Below, piece by piece: positions 1,099-17,431 of a stretch of 17,431 nt of DNA; within the stretch, counting starts at the first letter, position 1; every line of letters begins with the position of its first letter. The translations under genes and the position numbers were made by a program. Source of the stretch: a bacterium (GTDB lineage: Bacteria > SAR324 > NAC60-12); assembly GCA_965233585.1 (NCBI GenBank), contig CBDDTI010000284.1, positions 1 to 17,431 on the forward strand. Reading direction: 5' to 3'. The notes under the pieces are model-generated. The model was not told the origin of the DNA. It made no database searches and worked only from the letters and a program-made list of their open reading frames with translations.

Positions 1099-1101
1099 CC
1101 T

Positions 1102-1476
1102 TTAACGACGACGTTGTAGGCTCTTTTTTGCAATAATTTGAGCCAAAATAGGGACGATAATGCTGGCAATTGCCGATAAAGTTCCTAAAATTCCGCCCCT
1201 TTGTAGTATTGTTCTTTTTTTTGAAATGTCGGAAGAGCGACGAGGCGGCGTGGCAAGACGTCTGAACTCCCCTAAATGAGCTCTAATTTTTTTCTGAAGT
1301 CGTGTTCGCACTTCGCCATGTAAGGGCAATTCGCCGTTCAAAACGTAATGTAAAATACGACAAAGCAATTCAACGCCGCGATCGTCCAAATAATTTAAAA
1401 AATTAGCGCAATCTTTATGTTTTAATTTTTTTATTGCATTAAAAAGCGAATTAGCTTTTTCTAATTTTTTTGACAT
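1102..1476 (-). CDS. Small basic Polinton-type protein with QRGG motif and hydrophobic/amphipathic C-terminal helix (putative virion protein)
   Basis: Pattern ...VLNGELPL...RRLA...KKRTILQRGGILGTL...IVPIL resembles small ORFs found beside Polinton ATPases (recognised by eye). Confidence 0.7.
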   Translation of the reverse strand: MSKKLEKANSLFNAIKKLKHKDCANFLNYLDDRGVELLCRILHYVLNGELPLHGEVRTRLQKKIRAHLGEFRRLATPPRRSSDISKKRTILQRGGILGTLSAIASIIVPILAQIIAKKSLQRRR

Positions 1477-1522
1477 TTTAACAGTAATTATTTTTAATTT
1501 TTCTTAAATAGATATGAAATTT

Positions 1523-2218
1523 TTAAACAGTAACGTAGGCTTTCATTAATCCTTCATAAGGAAAGATGTTACTTCGAATTCTGACTTTATCGTCTTGCTG
1601 TTGATGAAAATCTAGAAGAAGATATCCGTGACTTCGACCGTTAACTGCTTCTCTATACGCTTTATTTAAGATTCCAACACGACCGGGAAAAATTTGTTTT
1701 GCCAAATGTGTGACGGCGCTTCTGTCCCGCGGATTGTTAAAAAGGATCATGTATTGCGTATTTATGCTTAATGTCCGTAAATCGCCTTTTTTGTCAAATA
1801 AATTTTGACAAAGAAAAATGGTGAAACAATTGTAATGATGGGTCAAAACCGTAAAAAAATGTTTTAATATTTGCCCAACATCGTCTAAATAATCGTCAAA
1901 AACAATCAATTTGGGCATTTTTCTCGGATATAATTCTAAAATATCTTTCAACTCTTCAATTGAATTTGGAATATTTTTGAATTTACGAAAAGACGGAAAT
2001 TGTGTGTCAGAACCTCTGCCCTCGTTCATGTCGTCTTCCATGTACTGATATGCTTTTTGCGGTTCCTTGTAAAACAACAACATTGTTTCAGGCGGAGTTG
2101 CAAAATATTCGTGCCGACGAAGCACTAAATGTTTTAGCCACGTTGTTTTTCCGCTTGATGTTGGACCAACAACCAACATGTTGGACGGAATATTAAACCT
2201 CAAATCAAAACCGTTCAT
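1523..2218 (-). CDS. A32/FtsK-HerA-like genome packaging ATPase
   Basis: Walker A GPTSSGKT, Walker B LIVFDD, then THHYNCFTIFLCQNLF and RTLSINTQYMILFNNPRD, typical of Polinton ATPases. Confidence 0.93.
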   Translation of the reverse strand: MNGFDLRFNIPSNMLVVGPTSSGKTTWLKHLVLRRHEYFATPPETMLLFYKEPQKAYQYMEDDMNEGRGSDTQFPSFRKFKNIPNSIEELKDILELYPRKMPKLIVFDDYLDDVGQILKHFFTVLTHHYNCFTIFLCQNLFDKKGDLRTLSINTQYMILFNNPRDRSAVTHLAKQIFPGRVGILNKAYREAVNGRSHGYLLLDFHQQQDDKVRIRSNIFPYEGLMKAYVTV

Positions 2219-2284
2219 TTTATTAATTTTAAAAAAGAAATTACAAAATTTTCTTTTAAATAAAAGTAATGATTTAATTATTTT

Positions 2285-5200
2285 TTATTTACAAATTTGA
2301 CATTTAGACATTTTGTTGTTAACAATAAGACTATTTCCTAACGATAAAGTGTGACATCCGCAATTTAAAACATATCTTTTGGAATCCATTGCCGACAACG
2401 CAATTTTTCTTTGAAAACACGTCCGGATTTTGTGATTCTTTGATCTTAAATTTTTAAAAGATTTGTAAATTACAACAGTTTGCTTTAAGCACTTTTTGTA
2501 ATCTGCATAAGTTAATTGCTTTTTTATACTAGATTTTTTTAAACCTTTGCATACTTTTTTCTCATCAGTTTTGTTTTTGTCCAAAAAATCGACTATTTTC
2601 ATGGAATAACATTTTGGACGTAAGCCTATAAAATCAGTAATAGCCGCTCTACCTTTTAATTCGTCTTTGAAATAAAAAAGTTGATTGGCTTTACTGTCGT
2701 CAAAAAGTGGATGTTGTTTAGGGTACTTTGAAAAATCAAACATGTGTTTCAATCTCTCCATTTCCCTTTCCAAATTGTTGCATTTAACTTTTAAAAGAAA
2801 AGAATCCGTGTCCGAAAAACACAAAGATACATTGTCTTTGCCGAAATGTTTTTGAATGGTGTCATAGTATGATCTGTACATAAACAACTTGGACAACTCT
2901 AGAATGGAAAATCCGACGGCTAAAGGCTTTCTAAGTTCTATCATTGCCGGCTTCTTGTTGACAGCCACCAAATTCTCATTAATGATTTGAAAATTGTTGA
3001 TGTGTTGACCAAGACTGGCTTTCCTCAGACTTTTTTCATCTCCACAAAGGACCACTTCGATGTAATTTCGAACATTTTCTAAAAATATAAAATAAAATAA
3101 ATATTCTATAAAAAATTCAACATTTTTATAAAAATTCATTATTAAGTGTGTAGGAGTTTAGAGATTTGTTTTTTAAAAACTTCCCAAAACCATGTGGTAA
3201 TTTTCAAAACAAACTTGAAGCAGAAGGAGGAGGAGGAAGAAGAAAAAGGAAAATGATGATGATGGAGATGAGGAGGGGGTACAGGAGGTTAAAGGAGGAA
3301 AGGGAGGAAGATGAAGAGCCGCTTTTAACAGCGAAGAAGAAGGAGGAGGTGGAGGAGAAGAGGAAGAACCGGAGACCGGGCCTGATCCGGCGGATCCGGT
3401 CGGCCGTGGCCGACATTTTTGATGCTCCGCCGTCCGCTGCCGCCTCCGCCACCGCCAGCGCCGCTGCTGTTGCACTCTCTGTTGGCGTTGCTGTGCTCGC
3501 CGCCAACGGTGCTGGCGGCGGCGGAGGCGGCAGTGGTCGCGCTGTCCGAGGCCTTCAAAACGAAAATTTTATTGAATTTGACGTGCCCACCGACATTCTT
3601 GTCGACCTCCCCACCAACGCCCCCACCGAGTCCCCCATCGAGATGCTCATTGAGGTCCCCACCGCCGAAATTCCCTCTAACGTCCCCACCGAGGCGCTTA
3701 TCGAAGCTACCACCGAATCCCCCATCGAGATGCTCATCGAAGCCCCCACCGACGAAATTCCCTCCAACGTTCCCACCGAAATGCTAATCGAGGTCCCCGT
3801 CCCCACCAAGATGCTCATCAAAGCCCCCACCGCTGAAATTCCCTCCAACGTCCCCACCGAGGTGCTAATCGAGGTCTCCGTCCCCACCGAGGCGCCCATC
3901 GAGGCCCCCACCGAGTTCCCCGCCGAGGCGTTTATCGAGTTCCCCATCGAAATCCCTACTGACGACCCCATCGAGGCTCCCATCCCCTTTAGACTCCCCG
4001 CCGACGACAGATCTATTGCCGCCAGACGTCGGGCAACGGAGATTGTCCGCCTGGCTAAAATCCGGGCAGCGGAAAACCGGATGGCGGATTTCAGCGGGGA
4101 GGTTATCACCGTGGAGGCCGAGATCCACGCGCCCCCCGACAACAACGAAGATGCGGATGAGCGTGTGGTGTGTACTGCCAACACATTCTGCACGAAATAT
4201 TGGCAGTACCACCGCACGCTTGTGCAAATATAAAAATATAAAAAAGATTTTAAATCTGAGTATTTACTTACCGATAAACTTTCCAAAAGTAGAGTTGGCA
4301 AAAAGCTTAAAAAGTCGAAGTTCAAAATCGTTGCGGGCGTTTGATCGTAGCATCGTGACCTTTTCAATAAACTCCTTCAAAAAAGCTTTTTGCCGAAACT
4401 TTACGGCTCTTCTTATCCTCAACAGCTTCATGCCTTTTTTCAAGTAGTATTGTAGATTTTCCAGATGCACCACGTACTTTTTTCGATCATAAAAAGTGCT
4501 CAACAGTTTCTTGCTTCGGTATCTTTTGTTCTTATAATCTCGAGGGTTGAGATGTTTTAGTAAACGGCGATTATAAGGAGACAGATGTTTGTAAGAAACC
4601 GTGTCTGTATACGGAGCCAGCGGAAATTGATCATGTGTCTGTAAATATTTTACCGTTTATCAAAAAATGCAAAAAACGTGTTAAAAAGATCAGATTTACC
4701 GGGTGAAGATGAGAAGGATAATGCAAATCAACTTCAAATGCGTACCCGGTCTCGTCTTGAGAAGGAATCTTGATAATATCTTTGGCAGTCCATTTTTCAA
4801 GATCTTTTTTTGCAACCCACTCGAAATCAGAAACTGGCAATTTTAAAGTTTCCATGCTCCCGTACAAGTTGTTTGCTAAAAAGTCACCGATTTTAAATAA
4901 ATAGATTAATCAAACGATGCAGTATAAAATTACCGTCAATGTAAAGTAAATGATCGCCGCTTTTTCTCGGATTGCTGTTTCCTTTTGCATAACGCTGAGA
5001 GATAAAGCTTTGTCCGCCTCTGATACCCTTTGTAAAAAACTGCTCCATTTCAGGATCGGAATAGATATCCAGAGATCCTGGAGGTTTGGAAGATTCACCC
5101 GCGAGGTTATCTTTTGTTGTTGTAGCTCGTTCAGAGTTTTGATAAAACATAAGCATAACATCAAAACTTAGTCCAGGAATTCCTAAAATTATACGAAATA

Positions 5201-7061
5201 AATTTTATATTCAAACTTTATATGTCAAGCAACAGAAAAGGAAATTTACCTAAGTAATAGATCGGATCCAATTGAAAGTGTTCCATAACCATTTTCCTGT
5301 ATTGAAGAAACGCTTCACATAGCAGGATGACATCCAAAGAACAATAAAGCATCATGTAATCCGCCACATTCTTGCACTTGAACAGTTTGAAGACTTCTTG
5401 CGCATGAGAATAATCCGTTTCCGAGATGTGTTCTTCATTCAATTCGGAATAAAAAGCATCTTTGGTTGGGAGGTTTCGACTTTTTTTCATTTCTTGTAAT
5501 GATTGAAAATGCTCGTAACAAAAAATGCCTTTTCTTTTTAAAAGTTTAAAAGCTTTTGATTTTTGACGGATAGGAATTTTTTGAAATCTTTTCATCTGTT
5601 GTAAAATAGGGAAAGAAAAGTTTGAAGTTTGATTCAAATCTTGGACAAGAGCGTCTAAGCTGGCAGATATGTGCTCTAATGAATCTTGGATTTTAAATTT
5701 GCCCAATGTAAGAGTGCGAAACTTTTCACTGTTTCTAGCCAAGACTTCCGGCATTCTCTTGAATCGGCGAATGTTTAACTCTTCTATGATTAAATGCAAA
5801 TCGTATCTGAAACATTCAATTTGTTAAAAAATTAATTAAAAATAAAGTTAATAAAAAATTTTTACCCTTGAGCGTTGTGGAAAAAAATTGGCGTGTGATA
5901 GGGTCCGGATCTTGTCAAATTACACAGCGAATGAGCCGCACCCATTATTTTTCCTGTGACATGATCGTGATCCAAAACTTTTCTATACTTTTTAGGATGG
6001 GTAGCAAATCGAAGACCGCATATATGACAAACGGTTGCTTTTCGAAACATTTGCCATTCCTCATGGGTGGCTTGAGTTTTGAGAACATCTCTAAATTTTT
6101 GTTTTCTTTCTTCAACCACTTTTTCGTAAAGAGGTATCCGATCCAAAAAACGTTTGGCCGCATCCTCTCCTAAATATTCTTCTTGAAAGAATACTTCATT
6201 TTCGGAGTCCACAAAAATCAGGCTGTAGCCTACCGGTCTATGCACATTTATATCGTCACTTGTGGGAAAAGCACACAAGCATTCCAATTTAGAACAAAGT
6301 CGACATTTAGATCGTTCCTTGTTTCTTTGAAGCACACTTTCAAAATCACAAAATCCCACAACAGGTGCTTTAAACTTATGTTTGTGGTTAGAAAAACTTA
6401 TAGCGGCATTTTTGCCGGGATAGATGGTGCGTTGCTTATCGTAGCAAATCCGCTCATGCTTTTCTTTCTTGGATTTTGATCGGAAACGCAGCAGACATTT
6501 TTCACAGTGAATGTACTTCTGTTGACCCGCTTTGTTAAACGACAACAGTCCGGCCCGATTATTCAAAAAACCTTGGAGTTTTGTAATTTTAAAGAAATGA
6601 TGCTGTTGATTTAAATCTTTGATTTTTTTAGGAAACTTGGAAGGAAAACTCGATTTTTTGGGGCGGGAATTACTCGAAGTTTTATCGGAAGAGATTTTAG
6701 GATCATGTTTTATCATTAACAAATGGAGAGTATTTTCTCTTATATCATTGTTTTTGTTAGTAATAAACCCTAAATTTGAAACGTGACCTTCACTCTCATA
6801 AAGTACGGAAATTGAAATTGGTAAATGACGATTTCTACACAAAAATTTTTTTATGTCACAAAATTGAAGAGGAAACGTAAAACCTTTTATGTTAAATTTT
6901 TTAAGATATTTTATTGGCATTTGACGAAAATCTGTAATGGAAGCAATTTCTGGAAAAAGATGTCTAATGTACAGATAAAGAAAGTTGAATTTATCATATC
7001 GAGTATTCCATTCCAAGCAGTTAGATCTTTTTATATCTCGTGTAATTTCTATAAAATCCAT
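2285..7061 (-). CDS. polB: Protein-primed family B DNA polymerase (pPolB), spliced; exons 7061-5866, 5806-5250, 5182-4934, 4875-4700, 4638-4272, 3078-2285; 1112 aa
   Basis: Exons total 3339 nt and all splice phases agree. Motifs: ExoI FCDFES, EndoVII-like CHICG...DHDH...GAAHSLCN, ExoII HNAQGYD, ExoIII YCSLDVILL, IRGG, motif A YIDANNLYG, motif B KLFANSTFGK, motif C SDTDS, LRPKCY, KG. Confidence 0.93.
3253..4233 (+). CDS. Nested intronic gene: 326-aa protein with charged N-terminus, Ala/Val hydrophobic segment, Gly linker and P-T/I-E repeat stalk
   Basis: Uninterrupted GC-rich ORF (first in-frame ATG at 3253; frame open from 3166) lying wholly inside pPolB intron 5 on the opposite strand. TATAAAAA-like boxes at ~3107 and ~3127. 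Confidence 0.72.
   Translation: MMMMEMRRGYRRLKEEREEDEEPLLTAKKKEEVEEKRKNRRPGLIRRIRSAVADIFDAPPSAAASATASAAAVALSVGVAVLAANGAGGGGGGSGRAVRGLQNENFIEFDVPTDILVDLPTNAPTESPIEMLIEVPTAEIPSNVPTEALIEATTESPIEMLIEAPTDEIPSNVPTEMLIEVPVPTKMLIKAPTAEIPSNVPTEVLIEVSVPTEAPIEAPTEFPAEAFIEFPIEIPTDDPIEAPIPFRLPADDRSIAARRRATEIVRLAKIRAAENRMADFSGEVITVEAEIHAPPDNNEDADERVVCTANTFCTKYWQYHRTLVQI
3623..3975 (+). repeat. Coding tandem repeats (units of ~87 nt, PIEMLIExPTxEIPSNVPTE, built from short PTE/PIE motifs)
   Basis: Near-identical blocks start at 3634 and 3721 (87 nt apart), with a further copy near 3811. Confidence 0.85.
4639..4699 (-). other. Spliceosomal intron 4 of pPolB (61 nt)
   Basis: GTAAAT...TTACAG; removal restores YPSHLHP|THDQFPLAP. 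Confidence 0.9.
4876..4933 (-). other. Spliceosomal intron 3 of pPolB (58 nt)
   Basis: GTAATT...TTTTAG; removal restores motif A YID|ANNLYG. Confidence 0.93.
5183..5249 (-). other. Spliceosomal intron 2 of pPolB (67 nt)
   Basis: GTAAAT...TTTTAG; removal restores LDPIYYLG|IPGLSFDVML. Confidence 0.92.
5807..5865 (-). other. Spliceosomal intron 1 of pPolB (59 nt)
   Basis: GTAAAA...TTTCAG; removal restores HNAQG|YDLHLII. Confidence 0.92.
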
Positions 7062-7111
7062 TTCCAAAGCTTACTTGAATTTTTCATATACAACAAAATA
7101 AGTCCTTAAAA

Positions 7112-7873
7112 TCAAATATTGGTAATTTGGATGTCGCTAAAAGACAGAGATTCGAATCTCCATCCGGAACCTCTCATCAACAAATCCTCTTCTCGAGTTA
7201 TTAAATTGTTCAATAATTTTTGAACTTTACCTTTTAACGAGCGAGAAGAATCAAAAGACGTGAATTGAATATAGCCGGTTCTTAAAGCAAAGACATCTCG
7301 ATCGCTAGGCATTAATTCATGTGACGACTGATCAAAACTTTTTTCAGTTGAATCATCAATGTTGCTAACAACCGTTTGAGGCTGTGATGAAGTATTATCA
7401 ACAACAGCTTCCGTCTCAGTGTCTTTGTCTTTTGTAGCTGAATTCAAATCAGGAATCTGATACGCCGCTGATAAAATTAAAGCAACTTTTACTGTAAAGG
7501 TTTTACTTAATTCATGACGAATAACATCAACAATTTCTTGTCTATTTGTTCTATTAACAACAAAGGCGTGAAGCGTTTCTGTAGAAAATATATGTTTCCG
7601 AAAAATTTTGATTTTACCGTTTAAAGCAGATTTAAAAAGAGAGTAATTTAAGTCTTCTAAATGAGAGGAATCGATGTGAGAGACCAAATCATTTCTTGAT
7701 TTAAAGGAACTTAATTCATTCTTACAAAACGGGCACTGAAGCGATTGATTTAATGGAGTCCGATTTCGGAATTTTGACGATGTTTCACGATGACGAAACA
7801 ATTCATGTTTGTCTCGGGAAGATTTTCTAGTAAACGATTTTTGGCATTCGCGGCAGATGTAGGATTTTGGCAT
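7112..7873 (-). CDS. Putative stand-alone terminal protein (pPolB N-terminal region) with two N-terminal C2H2 zinc fingers
   Basis: CRECQKSF...KHELFRH and CPFC...SHIDSSH fingers. The C-terminal EEDLLMRGSGWRFESL matches the GSGW motif of the N-terminal (terminal protein) region of Polinton pPolBs. Ends 50 bp before the polymerase ATG. Confidence 0.7.
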   Translation of the reverse strand: MPKSYICRECQKSFTRKSSRDKHELFRHRETSSKFRNRTPLNQSLQCPFCKNELSSFKSRNDLVSHIDSSHLEDLNYSLFKSALNGKIKIFRKHIFSTETLHAFVVNRTNRQEIVDVIRHELSKTFTVKVALILSAAYQIPDLNSATKDKDTETEAVVDNTSSQPQTVVSNIDDSTEKSFDQSSHELMPSDRDVFALRTGYIQFTSFDSSRSLKGKVQKLLNNLITREEDLLMRGSGWRFESLSFSDIQITNI

Positions 7874-7973
7874 TTCTGTTAAAATTCTGAAACAAAATTT
7901 ATTGACGCGTGAAATTTAGAAATAATATATACAAACACATTAAAACTATATAGCTCAGACTAATTAATACAAA

Positions 7974-8804
7974 TCATTCTTGTCTAAAATGACGCAACAA
8001 TCTTTGATATTGAGCACGTAAGCGTTCGCGTTCACGCTCAAGCGTTTGAATGCGTTGACGCAATACGTACTCAGCATAACGATTGAACAAATCATAAGGT
8101 GAGCCTCCTTCTACATCAATTAAATCAAGAATGAAAGAGGCTAAACGACCGTCACTCGATCTTTCTAAATTTGAGGGTGCAGGGAAATAATTTTCCTCTT
8201 CTATTTCTTCTTCTGCTGATCGAGTTGGACGTTGATAAGGAGAAGAATATCTTCCACCCCTACCAACACCGCGTCTGACCTCTCGTCCAATCGAGGCTGA
8301 AGTCGTTTGATTGAAGGGGCGAGAAATATTTTGACCCCGACCAACACCACGACCAGCGACCGAAGTACTCGAGGTGTTGCGCTCAGCAAAAATTCTTTGA
8401 GACATGGGACTCGATGTTGAATCATCGACAGCGTTGTTTGATGATGGCGATGTTAATTCATCGGCGGAGTTATTGGTCGATGTTAAATCATCGACTAAAT
8501 TGTTATTGATCCGAACCATAATTCCAAATCCTTCGGGGTTTACAACTATCGGTTCAGATACTCGACCCCGTTGATTAAACGAGGAAGATGTTGTTTGGCC
8601 CCGACCAACACCACGAGCGGGGAGAGAAGAACTTGGGCCATCATTTGACCTCAAATCTCCTCGACCTCGTCCAATCGGCACAACCGGTGGAGATGGCGGT
8701 GATGTTAAATCATCAGCGTTCCTTAGATGAAATCTTATTCTTAACCCTGCAGGGCCAAGAAAAACTTGGCGAGGGTTGTTTGAGTCATTTGGTAAATTAG
8801 ACAT
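7974..8804 (-). CDS. Hypothetical 276-aa disordered RG-rich protein with a C-terminal helical/coiled-coil segment
   Basis: Intact ATG ORF; repeated RGVGRG/GRGRG and DDLTS motifs; ends LRQRIQTLERERERLRAQYQRLL. Confidence 0.75.
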   Translation of the reverse strand: MSNLPNDSNNPRQVFLGPAGLRIRFHLRNADDLTSPPSPPVVPIGRGRGDLRSNDGPSSSLPARGVGRGQTTSSSFNQRGRVSEPIVVNPEGFGIMVRINNNLVDDLTSTNNSADELTSPSSNNAVDDSTSSPMSQRIFAERNTSSTSVAGRGVGRGQNISRPFNQTTSASIGREVRRGVGRGGRYSSPYQRPTRSAEEEIEEENYFPAPSNLERSSDGRLASFILDLIDVEGGSPYDLFNRYAEYVLRQRIQTLERERERLRAQYQRLLRHFRQE

Positions 8805-12778: not shown

Positions 12779-13292
12779 GAAGTTGCAGCAAATGTTTATA
12801 CAAAGACGTGTGATGTATTACTGAAATAGTTTATGACATAAAAATAATAAATTTTAAATTAAGCGCGCTCTTTTATTTTAAAATTAAGGATAATAGTCTG
12901 CTACTTAAAAATTAGACACAGCAGCAGAAAAATCATCCAAAAAATCAAAATAAAAACAAACGTGATTTTTTCTGTTAATAAATAATTGCGACATTTGGTT
13001 GAGTTGAGAATCTTTTCGTAAACACCGATAAACAATAACTGTTGAAAAGTTGAACATGTATATATTTTTGATAAAATTATCGAGCGGAAATTATTGTTTA
13101 TGACAATAGCTTTGGTGCGAGTTATGATTTGTTGACGCAAAACGAGTTGCGCTTTAATTTGTGTTTGTTTTGGAAAACGGAAATTCAAACATTGTCGTTC
13201 TCAGAACCTTTCTTCGCGCCCCCGAACTGATTCAAGACGTGGAAAGTGGGAAAAATTGAGGTTGCAAACGGCTTGCAATCGGCTTGCAACAG

Positions 13293-13550
13293 GCCGATTG
13301 CAGACGAAAACAAGCCGATTACAGGCTCGATTGAGCCTGTTGCAAGCCGATTGCAGACGAAAACAAGCCGATTGCAGGCTCGATTGAGCCTGTTGCAAGC
13401 CGATTGCAGACGAAAACAAGCCGATTACAGGCTCGATTGAGGTTGTTGCAAGCCGATTGCAGACGAAAACAAGCCGATTGCAGGCTCGATTGAGGTTGTT
13501 GCAAGCCGATTGCAGACGAAAACAAGCCGGTTGCAGACGATTACAAGCCG
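13293..13550. repeat. 53-bp tandem array (~4.5 copies) with internal hairpins
   Basis: Unit gccgattgcagacgaaaacaagccgattRcaggctcgattgagSYtgttgcaa starts at 13293, 13346, 13399, 13452 and 13505. An inverted partial copy lies at ~13275-13293. Confidence 0.95.
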
Positions 13551-13752
13551 ATTTCAGGTTGAAACAACCTTAATGTAGATGCCATCAAGGTGTTTTGAGA
13601 GCGCATCAAGATGGTTTTTATCGGTAAACGGATGGTTGAAAGACGGTTTCAGCCTGTTTTAAGGTGTTTTGAGAACGTTTTAAGGTGATTTTAGAGCGTA
13701 ACAAGCTCGAATGAGAGTGACAAGAAGCACTTCGCAGAAGATGTCAACAGGG
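13551..13752. repeat. Degenerate 10-11-bp periodic tract ending ...TGTCAACAGGG; candidate outer part of a terminal inverted repeat
   Basis: aaggtgttttgaga at 13587 and 13661, ttttaaggtg at 13657 and 13678; periodicity stops at the G-run at 13750-13754. Confidence 0.5.
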
Positions 13753-13790
13753 GGTCTTGGGGATCTTTTACATGTGACATGAATATCCTT

Positions 13791-14040
13791 TCAAGTCAAC
13801 TGACATCTTCACTAAATAAGCATTACATAAATTTCTTGAAGAGCTATTCATATTCATGATTTTTTTTCATTTTAAAAGATATTCAAGTCAAGTGACATCT
13901 TCACTAAATAAGCATTACATAAATTTCTTGAAGAGCTATTCATATTCATGATTTTTTTTCATTTTAAAAGATATTCATGTCAGCTGACATCTCAACTAAA
14001 TATGCACGGCATAAATTTTATGAAGATTCCTTCATATTTA
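13791..14040. repeat. 92-bp tandem repeat, two near-identical copies plus a diverged partial third
   Basis: tcaagtcaaStgacatcttcactaaataagc... at 13791 and 13883; diverged copy at 13975. Confidence 0.9.
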
Positions 14041-14591
14041 CGAAGAAATTATTTTCACATGTGCAAAAGAGCCCTTAAACTTTTGTGTCAGACATCCTTG
14101 TCACTCTATCAACCAGGAAAGTCATCTTGATCTTCTTGATCATGATAACAGCAGCCCTGTCAGTTCTCTGCATCTTGGGGTTGGAATTGATTTGAAGGAA
14201 GTTCTGGAGGAGAAAAGTGAAGGTCAGATTTTTTGCATTGATTTCTTGGGACATTCCCTGAAGCGAGCTCCAATAAGGTGCTCATGTCTTTCAGTGTGAT
14301 GACAGCTCATATCTGGCTGTAGTCTTGGCCTTACCCTGTAACGAGTATGTTGTGTTCTCAGTTGCAAGAATTACAGGAGTTGCCAACCTTTCCACCGAGT
14401 ATGTGGTCTATCAGATGGGCATAAGCTTCAACTTACCTGAAATCCCAAAGGCATTTCCCCATGAGAATGATCTTTTGGTATCCGCCTGGAACCTACCAGT
14501 AGTTGAACCCAGGTCCCAGATAATATAAAGCTGCCCTCTACCATTGAGCTATCCACACACATCCACCCCAGAAAAGGGGTAGCCCGGCCAG

Positions 14592-14671
14592 GTCCCCATC
14601 ACCTATGGTCCCTATTTAGTATTCATTATTATACTAAATAGAATAACATAGGGACGATCGGTGATGGGGAC
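14592..14671. repeat. 80-bp foldback (24-bp inverted arms), possible MITE remnant
   Basis: gtccccatcacctatggtccctat pairs with atagggacgatcggtgatggggac (2 mismatches); inner ctatttagtat/atactaaatag inverted repeat. Confidence 0.75.
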
Positions 14672-16143
14672 ATGCCAGGCTCCCAGGAAAGGCCTACAAA
14701 ACCTAATAGATATTTAAGGCAATAAAGCACTATGTTTCTTTGAAGAATTGATATCTGTTCGATGGCAAATGCACACTAAGAAATTAAACAATAGGCACGT
14801 AGCTGTTACTCTTTGCACAATACCACTTGAAGCTAGCCTCTTGTTGGCACAGCAATCCCCTTGATGAAAGTTCCTGTCTCAGCACAAATCAAGGTCATGT
14901 AATCCTCCTCTCCAAAGTCACCAAAGCGGTTGACATTCTAAGGGATCTACACCATGTAGTCTGAGAAGTTGGTCTTCTGGAGCCTCAGCTTCTTGCTCCC
15001 GGGACACACATATAACAAACACTCATCTGAGGTTCCATGGATACCAGGTCAGCTAATTCCCAAATCTCCACATTATCCCTATCTTCAGTCTTTTCCGAAA
15101 AACCCTCTTTGGTCTTGTCAATGAAGCTGGCATTCTTTATGCTGTCTACCTTGCATTTTTCTACATCCTAGACCAGGAAGTAAGTGCCGAAGAAGAACTG
15201 GGACTAGAAATTCCGGGAGATAGGGAGATCTATCTCTGGGGTCAATTTCAGTAGTGTGACCCTGATTGAGATCCTAAATTGGAAATTCCAGATTTTCCTG
15301 ATCTCTGGGAGTGTCCCAGAGCTGGAGGGGAATGGAGCTATCATATGTTGCTGTCCGGGTCCACAGTAACACCAACTGCTACAGCCCTGTCCTTGGAGCC
15401 CGCGGCAAACCCATGCTTAGGAACAAACTCACATATGTGGAAAATTTTCGAGATTGAATCGCTTCAATCTCGAAAATTATCCTTTACCAATCTTTCAGAA
15501 TGTTCTCTACCCAAATTCATGGATAACGGTTTTGGTGAATCGAATTGTTGTCCCTCAGGTGTGCCCAATTCTCTTGTTTATGGCATGCAGTTTTGTTGTC
15601 CAGTCGGGAATTGTCACCCCTGCCTGGACGGATTAGAAGTTTCGGTTACGACCCCCAGGAAAACTGCATCGTTATAAGGCAGATGTTTCCGTCGGACCGT
15701 TAGGTCGCGACATTTATCTCATTAAGAGATGAATAGTAAACGAGACTTTCCCCACCCCCAAAGGGTTGGAAACTGGAAACTGTTTGTGAGAAAACAATCA
15801 TAAAATGAGTTGTTTTGCCCCTCGAAATACCAGGTCTTTCGAGGGGTAACGGTTTCCGACTTGGCTTCTCTTTGGGGATGAGAACAAAATGCGCACTTGT
15901 ATTCTAGGAACCACGGTGATAACTGGTCCGAGGTTTTCACTCGTATATCCGACCTTAAAGTTTGTAATAACTCTAAACTATCTTGCTCTCGAAAATACAA
16001 GGCCGGCTCTGTTAAAAAGATCTCTGGTTATAGTCTCTTCAAATTTGGCTAGTTCTTGTTTGACTCCCTTCGGTCATTAAAGTGAAGGCTGTTTGATCGT
16101 CTGGTCCGCTTTGTCGAAGAAGCGTCCGCCAGACTTTTGACAT

Positions 16144-16164
16144 TGGTGCATCGTCCGGAAATCG
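16144..16164 (+). promoter_or_regulatory. Primer-binding site complementary to the 3' end of tRNA-Gly
   Basis: TGGTGCATCGTCCGGAAATCG versus the recalled reverse complement of invertebrate tRNA-Gly(GCC) plus CCA, TGGTGCATCGGCCGGGAATCG (2 mismatches). Confidence 0.75.
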
Positions 16165-16312
16165 CATAAACCTCCCGGACTACCAACGATGCTGAAGAGC
16201 TCAGGATCTAGAGTCGTTGTATATAGAGTGTACAGTAGTTAGTGTTAGTGATAAAACTTTTTATTTTTGTGTTAGTATTTTTACAGACAATCGAAACAAT
16301 CTTTATTACAAA

Positions 16313-17431
16313 ATGGATCAAAGACTTAAAGTAGCTGAAAATCAGGGTGAAGAAGACGCCAACATGGTCACCGCCGTGGAGGACACCCGGCTATTGGACA
16401 GAGATGTCACAATGGTCCGGGAGACCGAAACGCCATGACCAGCAACGGCCCCTACAGGAATCGCAAGACCGACGGTGAGGGACAGTCCAAGTCTGTCGGA
16501 ACAACATCTGCAACACCGACAACAGCCTCACTACTCTAGTCAAGGGTCAAACTCCGAGCGGGAAAGTGCGGACGAGGAACTTCAGACCGAAGTCAGGATC
16601 CGGCGAGCTATGGAAAGAAACGGTAGGTTGGTCGACCTCACCGAAAGAATGACAACAGAAAGGGACAAAGCGATGAGGAACCCAACACATTGGAATCGCT
16701 CGGTGTTGGAAGCTTTCGTCCTGGACAACGCCAACGCCTTGGTGAAGTCGGCCGCCGACCAAAGCGTCAATTTCAGGCTCGCAGGACCGGAACAGGAGGT
16801 GATTCTGTCACCCCTCCTCGACGACAGCCTCGCTCGCGAACGAATGATCCTGATGGCGCGGATGGATCAAAACATCAGGATATCCCAGGTAGTGCGAGTT
16901 TACTCAAGGGAGGACAAGGATTTGTATTACTTCATGGCCATGGAAGCGGGGATGGAGATGCTAAAACGCAGGGAGTACCGGATTGACGACTGGTACCGGA
17001 GGAGGACTGAGACGTGGGGAACACTCGACACGTTCCTTGATCAGCTCAGAGAATCCATGACCCTAGCCGGAGGCAACCCCGAACAACTCCAAAGGTTCAT
17101 GACGAGGTATACAGGTCTGGCCAGAACCCTCTTCTTCGAAGGAGTAATTTCGTGCATCTTGGCGGTCCTTGGACATCCCGGTAACTTCGAACATTTCGTC
17201 CGGGACCGAGAGATAAAACTGATGGAGTCACCGCACGCACCCGTCCGCGTCATGCTACAGTGTGTGGAGCTGATGCATCAGGCTGGACTGCACGTCCCTC
17301 TACTCCACCGGGACTACTTTCTTCGCGCAAGGGACCAGGCACGTTATCTCGCGGAGCGGAAGACGTTGGCCAACAAGGTCTTGGAACAAGAGAGACAGAG
17401 AGAGGAGCAGAGGGAACGTCAAATTACCACC
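16313..17431 (+). pseudogene. Gag-position ORF of the retrotransposon with one in-frame TGA (16436-16438); runs off the window
   Basis: The frame from ATG 16313 stays open for 331 codons after the TGA to the window end (MDQRLKV...ETP*PATAPTG...EQRERQITT). The downstream part is absent from the ORF track because it has no stop. No diagnostic Gag motif seen. Confidence 0.55.

Follow-up and report, generated by a model that had tools for sequence, protein, structure and literature searches.

The stretch of DNA considered here, positions 1 to 17,431 of contig CBDDTI010000284.1 in assembly GCA_965233585.1 (17,431 nucleotides (nt); hereafter the window), is filed under the bacterial lineage SAR324 and is best explained as containing part of a Polinton/Maverick (adintovirus-like) element of a eukaryote. 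Two adjacent genes of this element are the subject of the present analysis: an upstream open reading frame (ORF) for a putative stand-alone terminal protein (TP), and the gene of a family B DNA polymerase of the protein-primed kind (pPolB), which opens with a vOTU-like domain. They belong to a series of six co-oriented ORFs on the minus strand (1099-8804), encoding in order a 276-amino acid RG-rich protein, the TP, the polymerase, an A32/FtsK-like ATPase and two proteins of 124 and 281 amino acids, with spacers of 100, 50, 66, 46 and 3 nt. Because all six ORFs are packed with similarly short spacers, the 50-nt gap between the TP and polymerase ORFs is normal for this element. In the parts of PMC11071308 and PMC11161782 that deal with these proteins, the polinton pPolB is described as a TP-vOTU-polymerase fusion with conserved Cys and His, and adenovirids as having a separate TP together with an inactivated vOTU; the background set out in an earlier note on this DNA agrees with these papers.

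On the minus strand, to which all coordinates refer unless stated otherwise, the upstream ORF (253 amino acids) runs from ATG 7873 to the TGA stop at 7114-7112, 15 residues beyond a GSGW motif (7171-7160). For the polymerase, the start codon is ATG 7061, out of frame with the upstream ORF, and its product opens MDFIEITRDIKRSNCLEWNTRYDKFNFLYLYIRHLFP. The stop and the restart in another frame are both as the earlier note had reported them. The spacer between the stop and the polymerase ATG (7062..7111, 50 nt) contains no AATAAA, and all three frames are closed around it. Between 7160 and 7040, the frame of the upstream ORF has stops at TGA 7114, TAA 7108 and TAG 7051, the polymerase frame at TAG 7139 and TAA 7073, and the third frame at TGA 7086. 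Because each frame carries a stop in this interval, a fusion of the two ORFs by stop readthrough or by a -1/+1 frameshift is ruled out, the stops being spread from 7139 to 7051. The break falls between the last strand of the TP and the first strand of the vOTU-like domain.

The downstream gene encodes an intact protein-primed family B polymerase of 1112 amino acids. When the fused 1195-amino acid relative P0002, taken from the protein library, was used as a tblastn query, its residues 170-1192 were covered by six colinear pieces of the window in changing frames. A search for GT/AG pairs at the five junctions left two solutions, and the better-scoring one was used. The resulting gene has six exons and five introns. 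Exon 1 (5866..7061, 399 codons) encodes, besides the vOTU-like domain, a zinc ribbon of C2H2-like type, the DFES sequence of the Exo I motif (residue 239) and an HNH insert, and is followed by intron 1 (5865-5807, 59 nt), exon 2 (5250..5806), intron 2 (5249-5183, 67 nt), exon 3 (4934..5182) and intron 3 (4933-4876, 58 nt). Exon 4 (4700..4875) opens with the Pol A motif NNLYG (residue 669) and is separated by intron 4 (4699-4639, 61 nt) from exon 5 (4272..4638), which carries the Pol B motif NSTFGK (residue 841). Intron 5 (4271-3079) is much longer, with 1193 nt, and precedes exon 6 (2285..3078), which contains both DTDS (residue 938), the Pol C motif, and the stop codon. The motif names follow the part of Jeong et al. 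that defines them, and the assignment of DFES, NNLYG, NSTFGK and DTDS to Exo I and Pol A, B and C is our own reading. A g/GTAA donor (the slash marks the splice site) and a TTTnAG acceptor are found in 5/5 introns, and four of the five measure 58-67 nt. Because the spliced frame is open for 1112 amino acids with the motifs present, this polymerase copy is not decayed. In Pfam, single exon pieces had no match to PF03175; the relatives P0001 and P0003 do match this family.

To compare the junction with these introns, all GT-AG, GC-AG and AT-AC pairs able to connect the upstream ORF with the polymerase frame, with no stop in between, were enumerated. This yielded 92 open joins, 64 of them bare AT..AC dinucleotide pairs. 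Five GT-AG joins keep GSGW, all from a donor at 7145 (ct/GTCTTT) with acceptors from 7027 to 6739, and each would cost the TP half of its last strand and the polymerase its first 11 residues or more. A further nine joins of the GC-AG type start at 7137, where the donor is poor (tta/GCGACA). The earlier statement that no GT-AG intron retains GSGW is hence too strong when taken literally, five such joins being present, and holds in substance in view of a donor unlike those of the five real introns and of the conserved residues that would be lost. The candidate acceptors are not T-rich, except for the TTTTATAG site at 7049. In addition, there is no AG within 7070-7051, so no acceptor can preserve the M-D-F-I start of the polymerase. 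All the enumerated joins cost conserved residues of either the TP or the vOTU-like domain. A canonical intron at the junction was therefore rejected, since the enumerated joins are unlike the five real introns of the polymerase and delete conserved residues.

Structure prediction and comparison support the assignment of the upstream ORF (7112..7873) as a gene for a stand-alone zinc-finger TP, with two N-terminal C2H2 fingers followed by a predicted TP (D1) domain. Finger 1 (C7/C10/H23/H28; 7790..7855) and finger 2 (C47/C50/H66/H71; 7661..7735) match the Pfam families zf-met (E 9e-4) and zf-Di19 (E 2e-3) below the curated cut-offs, and both are conserved in the alignment of TP relatives described below (A1). 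An AlphaFold2 model based on A1 (predicted local distance difference test (pLDDT) 83.3, predicted template modelling (pTM) score 0.69) places, behind the fingers, strands at residues 78-83, 88-97, 127-139, 192-198, 202-205 and 239-252, helices at 101-122 and 210-232, and a disordered insert at 140-188. The predicted model thus agrees with the TP fold, described as a four-stranded sheet, optionally with an extra strand, and two helices, with a D1-like core at 7118..7642 as delimited by the AlphaFold2 secondary structure and the Foldseek matches. According to section 7 of PMC11071308, D1/TP domains carry the linking Ser or Tyr, with a neighbouring Gly or Pro, in the loop that connects helix 2 to the last strand. 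In the GSGW loop (7160..7171), Ser236 (codon 7168-7166) has this position and neighbourhood: in the model, it sits in the loop 233-238 between helix 210-232 and strand 239-252, and G235, S236 and W238 are invariant in 23/23 rows of A1. Ser236 is hence the predicted nucleotide-linking (priming) residue. The ORF ends right behind the last TP strand, in the linker between this strand and the vOTU where cleavage by the vOTU has been proposed for the fused proteins (PMC11071308, section 9).

Among predicted viral structures (BFVD), the Foldseek list for the TP model is headed by a protein from Drosophila-associated adintovirus 2 with a C2H2-type domain (E 2.7e-7), followed by an unnamed protein (E 3.2e-5). 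Only these two have E <= 1e-3, and the next matches are three bidnavirus-like DNA polymerases (E 2.8e-3 to 7.2e-3). In the PDB, all of the ranks 1-26 listed are Y-family polymerases (eta, kappa, Dbh/Dpo4, Pol IV and iota), with Rev1 lower. The little finger of Y-family polymerases is named as a relative of the TP fold in the corresponding part of PMC11071308. The adintovirus 2 protein has 560 amino acids and is annotated merely as C2H2-type domain-containing. Because the best viral match carries only this annotation, adintovirus records may hold unrecognised stand-alone zinc-finger TPs.

The polymerase begins with a vOTU-like domain lacking the nucleophile (approximately residues 1-175; 6537..7061). 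This region was aligned over 32 sequences of the split clade and three fused relatives (A2), and residues 1-185 were modelled with AlphaFold2 from this alignment (pLDDT 79.2, pTM 0.74). In OTU and vOTU proteases, the catalytic Cys is that of the DxxC box at the N-terminus of helix 1; here, this position is occupied by Asn26 (codon 6986-6984), at the N-terminus of helix 26-35 in the model. The earlier note had placed an Asn at the DxxC position in a gapless alignment, and MAFFT reproduced this against three fused relatives. In the split clade, the column reads N 18, Q 4, Y 3, E 2, K 2, G 1, A 1 and H 1, so that Cys is found in 0/32 sequences compared with 3/3 fused relatives, in agreement with the claim that the vOTU is inactivated. 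The aligned catalytic His column (His155, codon 6599-6597) holds H 19, Y 9 and F 4 in the split clade and H 3 in the fused relatives, and column 154 beside it H 30, Y 1 and C 1 compared with Q 2 and G 1. The catalytic His of OTU proteases belongs to strand 4, and His155 lies in strand 153-159 of the model, where a shift of the alignment by one column is possible. A nearby Cys15 (in SNCLEW), which the earlier note had named as a possible catalytic residue, was rejected as a replacement nucleophile and does not displace the reading of Asn26. It cannot be a conserved substitute because its column reads C 8, S 11, A 12 and V 1 in the split clade (A 1, V 1 and one gap in the fused relatives).

Other parts of the domain are well conserved in the split clade, with Y22, L28 and H34 invariant in 32/32 sequences and a mean pairwise identity of 45%. 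As far as alignments can tell, the domain is retained in this clade while its catalytic chemistry is lost. Its assignment as an OTU fold, as the earlier note had expected, was weakly recovered: OTU proteases head the Foldseek list against the PDB, with seven of the first ten chains (Taggert, Wolbachia, Crimean-Congo haemorrhagic fever virus (CCHFV) and Hazara), at a best E of 0.37. The assignment draws mainly on homology to the fused pPolBs, whose D2 domain has been identified in the literature as a vOTU. A look-up of the vOTU-like part in the Protein Atlas returned unnamed clusters only.

Whether the break is specific to this copy, as the earlier note had asked, was addressed with relatives of both proteins. 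A phmmer search with the 253-amino acid ORF against 1.84 billion representative proteins (E <= 1e-3) yielded 41 relatives, none of which is fused to a polymerase. The only relatives longer than 404 amino acids are four proteins of 633-1121 amino acids, which match the zinc-finger residues alone, in many repeated stretches, and the remaining 37 measure 40-404 amino acids. The alignment A1 took 22 of the 41, leaving out the four long zinc-finger arrays and 15 partial (N-terminal or middle) or short matches. GS[GN]W is present in 22/22 of these aligned relatives, at 25% to 79% identity to the window protein; 21 of them end 15 to ~43 residues past the motif Trp, and one is cut just after the motif.

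On the polymerase side, a word-indexed search of the library identified 46 sister exon-1 ORFs of 226-420 amino acids (39-97% identity). In 30 of them, the first residue is a Met that precedes the F-x-[IL]-P strand by 0-6 residues, whereas the other 16 begin further downstream and none (0/46) reaches further upstream; M1 is aligned in 31/32 split-clade rows of A2. One of these ORFs, P0045, is 97% identical to the exon-1 ORF of the window and represents 58 member sequences. A search for longer relatives found only P0001, P0002 and P0003, which are distant and fused (27-31% identity). The nearest, P0001 (31% identity), likewise starts with two C2H2 fingers; it contains GSGW and has retained the Cys.

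These sister copies are database ORF translations rather than DNA, and the library contains no spliced models of the clade. The sister exon-1 ORFs end at a conserved intron donor (NAQG/GTAA); a conserved ORF end alone is hence no proof of a true stop, and it is the conserved initiator Met together with the lack of splice sites in the window that carry the argument for a split. The break exceeds chance, given that relatives with identities as low as 25-43% show the ORF end and the Met start at the same places. A mutation specific to this copy is thus rejected by the sister ORFs, and the split is, on the evidence of ORF translations, a property of a clade. Searches of genome contigs based on the exon-1 and TP alignments gave 42 and 24 pattern matches, none of which was confirmed.

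We consider it probable that these observations reflect a separate zinc-finger TP and a polymerase whose vOTU lacks the nucleophile, both conserved within a diverse clade. In such a system, the free zinc-finger TP would pair in trans with the polymerase, as the adenovirus pTP does with its Pol, with Ser236 in the GSGW loop offered as the acceptor of the first nucleotide. The TP would then remain on the 5′ end of the DNA, with no need for its proteolytic release. Since a separate TP needs no such release, the vOTU protease would have become dispensable and its nucleophile could be lost; the aligned His is also replaced in 13/32 sequences of the split clade. The vOTU-like domain is presumably kept as a structural or docking module. 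As guesses, the second cistron could be expressed by leader splicing or trans-splicing onto an acceptor in the spacer, or from an internal promoter.

Several points weigh against this interpretation. The second cistron would have to be translated from a start 50 nt behind a 253-codon ORF, and the two-protein output is predicted from the DNA. As regards the TP, the model recovers the published topology of TPs; the PRD1-like fold that the earlier note had expected is not reflected in the matches, the PRD1 TP and the adenovirus pTP being absent from the best 50 viral structure matches. The matches to the PDB are weak (best E 0.021, none with E <= 1e-3). The OTU fold match is also weak, with template modelling (TM) scores of 0.14-0.30 and no PDB match at E <= 1e-3, and an OTU domain was not detected by Pfam in either the window or the fused relatives. 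The assignment of the catalytic His hinges on the choice of one column, the neighbouring column 154 being His in 30/32 sequences. Furthermore, the last strand is followed in some sister TP ORFs by a Lys-rich tail of 10-25 additional residues that are not conserved, which could be read-through into an intron in those lineages. Because the library lacks spliced models of the clade, the absence of fused proteins from the database cannot by itself exclude splicing.

The last two points bear on the possibility that there is a single gene, in which an unconventional intron or another form of RNA processing removes the stop and the frame offset so that a fused TP-vOTU-polymerase is made. The polymerase gene carries five spliceosomal introns, the conserved end of exon 1 is itself a donor, and GC-AG joins such as 7137->7070 (68 nt) and 7137->7049 (89 nt) would restore the frame. 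The variable tails of the sister TP ORFs would fit as well. However, neither tta/GCGACA nor ct/GTCTTT has the g/GTAA of the 5/5 real introns, the acceptors are not T-rich save the one at 7049, every join deletes conserved residues, and M-D-F-I cannot be kept by any of them. A Met as first residue in 31/32 sequences would also be unexpected at the start of an internal exon, and the loss of the Cys throughout the clade fits a real split. A single fused gene is thus regarded as quite unlikely. It is also held to be extremely improbable that the break is a defect of this copy in a lineage that is normally fused, whether through an error of assembly or through a nonsense or frameshift mutation in an insertion undergoing decay. 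Integrated Polintons are often degraded, and a GC-rich block of 1.1 kb lies inside the polymerase locus. However, this block is wholly within intron 5, the polymerase is open for 1112 amino acids once its canonical introns are removed, the ORF end and Met start recur in distant relatives, and the nearly identical exon-1 ORF P0045 stands for 58 sequences.

Two other explanations accept the split and question the role of one of the proteins. The upstream ORF might encode a zinc-finger DNA-binding or regulatory protein, with priming done otherwise. In the relevant part of Starrett et al. (PMC8502044), paired-CXXC ORFs of adintoviruses, called "Oncoid" and typically located upstream of PolB, are read as oncogene-like, and both the two C2H2 fingers and the annotation of the best viral structure match would be in keeping with such a protein. 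On the other hand, residues 78-252 model with a TP/D1 topology and an invariant Ser in the expected loop, and the structure matches include bidnavirus-like pPolBs and Y-family polymerases. The fused P0001 has the same fingers and GSGW as the N-terminal part of its own polymerase, while the polymerase of the split clade has no TP domain of its own and starts at the vOTU strand. A purely regulatory role therefore seems unlikely, and some of the adintovirus "Oncoid" ORFs may be proteins like the present TP. The vOTU-like domain, in turn, could still be an enzyme, e.g., a deubiquitinase with another nucleophile or with host targets, given that it has been kept with three invariant residues (Y22, L28 and H34) at a mean pairwise identity of 45%, and that His is found at position 154 in 30/32 and at position 155 in 19/32 sequences. 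Such an activity is judged very unlikely, with eight residue types in the nucleophile column, none of them Cys or Ser, a Cys15 column that holds Cys in only 8 of 32 sequences, and an aligned His column that is Tyr or Phe in 13/32.

The arrangement resembles that of the Adenoviridae E2B genes for pTP and DNA polymerase, with a separate TP, a polymerase whose N-terminal vOTU-like domain has its active site replaced, and a Ser next to a Gly in the loop that precedes the last TP strand. However, compared with the adenovirid TP, the present protein is small (253 amino acids) and begins with C2H2 fingers, and the large helical insert and the extensions described for adenovirids are absent. The polymerase differs from that of adenovirids by its HNH insert and its spliceosomal introns, and the two genes lie in a packed cassette with an A32/FtsK-like ATPase. 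In canonical fused pPolBs (C. briggsae Polinton-1 and P0001-P0003), the order of domains and the motifs are the same, P0002 is colinear over the six exons and P0001 shares the two N-terminal fingers and GSGW with the TP of the window; however, these proteins are continuous and 3/3 of P0001-P0003 have the DxxC Cys, whereas here there is a stop, a change of frame, a new Met and no Cys. Bidnaviridae pPolBs also have a replaced vOTU active site, and bidnavirus-like polymerases are among the matches of the TP model. According to section 9 of PMC11071308, the TP of bidnavirids is fused to an inactivated vOTU and the whole polymerase stays on the DNA, whereas the TP is detached here.

Separation of the TP has in itself already been described for polintons and is less new than the earlier note had implied. 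Section 10 of PMC11161782 states that splits between TP and vOTU arose independently in several polinton groups. The polinton of Stylophora pistillata (a coral adintovirus) also has its own TP gene and a vOTU fused to the pPolB. Compared by its description in that section and in the legend of Fig. 5D, its vOTU is catalytically active, whereas the Cys is missing from 32/32 sequences here. In the portions of the literature covered, including Jeong et al., Starrett et al., the Oxyrrhis paper and a 2026 preprint, no polinton with both a split and a cysteine-less vOTU is described. The pairing of a split TP with a cysteine-less vOTU therefore appears to be new for polintons.

The idea that the polinton vOTU cuts off the TP has so far been based on modelling and on one natural contrast, the adenoviruses, in which the TP is split off and the vOTU is dead. 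A second diverse lineage would provide an evolutionary replicate, with the split accompanied by loss of the nucleophile in every sampled member while the fused relatives keep the Cys. Because this contrast is replicated in a second lineage, the link between the protease and TP release is strengthened. The 253-amino acid zinc-finger TP and its polymerase could also serve as a compact two-protein system for testing protein priming in polintons, and small C2H2 ORFs upstream of PolB in adintovirus-like elements may deserve annotation as TPs instead of regulators. The lineage is in addition a candidate source of adenovirus-type replication genes. The earlier note had thought an origin independent of adenoviruses probable, and such convergence may apply. 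We would give only a slim chance to the further possibility that, among surviving polinton/adintovirus lineages, this clade is the one nearest to the ancestor of Adenoviridae and has its detached TP and its inactivated vOTU in common with them by descent. If so, it would be a missing intermediate with both derived states and a retained polinton-type cassette.

Within the exonuclease region of the polymerase, the HNH insert (5913..6068) resembles endonuclease VII and matches Pfam PF02945 (E 1.8e-5, 25.0 bits for a cut-off of 23.6). It is also present in the fused relatives P0001-P0003. In the part of Jeong et al. concerned, the HNH domain is given as a mark of the nematode and oomycete pPolB2. 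When the exon-1 profile and exon 6 were searched against PDB sequences, the matches did not exceed chance level (E 0.3 and 0.43). Intron 5 holds a GC-rich block of ~1.1 kb (~3154-4263; 53% GC in a region of ~33%), which on the plus strand contains a 355-amino acid ORF (3166-4233) with tandem repeats of 81-87 nt encoding Pro/Thr/Glu-rich units. This block looks like a foreign insertion, which would be tolerated because it is located inside the intron.

Besides a pPolB, a Polinton/Maverick element is expected to have an RVE integrase, a DJR capsid protein, an adenain-like protease, a packaging ATPase and terminal inverted repeats. The element runs past the left end of the window; no long or terminal inverted repeat was found within the window, and neither an integrase nor a capsid protein was recognised by Pfam among the ORFs scanned. 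The ATPase ORF (2284..1523) has sub-threshold Pfam matches to Pox_A32 (17.7 bits for a cut-off of 22.8) and FtsK (16.7 for 24). At the left edge of the window, an ORF of 77 amino acids on the plus strand (2-235), open at the edge, has a Q...CGWY-type motif; it might resemble the C-terminus of Polinton adenain-like proteases, although Pfam returned nothing for it at E <= 1. In the sequence just before the TP ATG, AATAAA is followed by TTTGTTTCAG, then by 13 nt and the ATG. This order is reminiscent of a poly(A) signal with a 3′ splice acceptor, for a leader or a trans-splice, behind it, and is a hint of polycistronic transcripts that might be resolved by splicing. The 276-amino acid ORF beyond it (7974-8804) is of low complexity, with repeated GRGVGRG units and an internal direct repeat of 63 nt (at 8307 and 8571). 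Its product has an Arg/Glu-rich tail that looks like a coiled coil, and matches no family.

Pfam found nothing usable in the flanking ORFs, including a 331-amino acid frame on the plus strand (16439-17431, 3′-open; no match at E <= 1). Two arrays of tandem repeats, one of about six copies with a 53-nt period (13237-13575) and one of three copies of 92 nt (13790-14065), lie between the AT-rich side of the element and the GC-richer right part of the window. The latter (14000-17431), with a GC content of 43-50%, is probably flanking host sequence or a different element.

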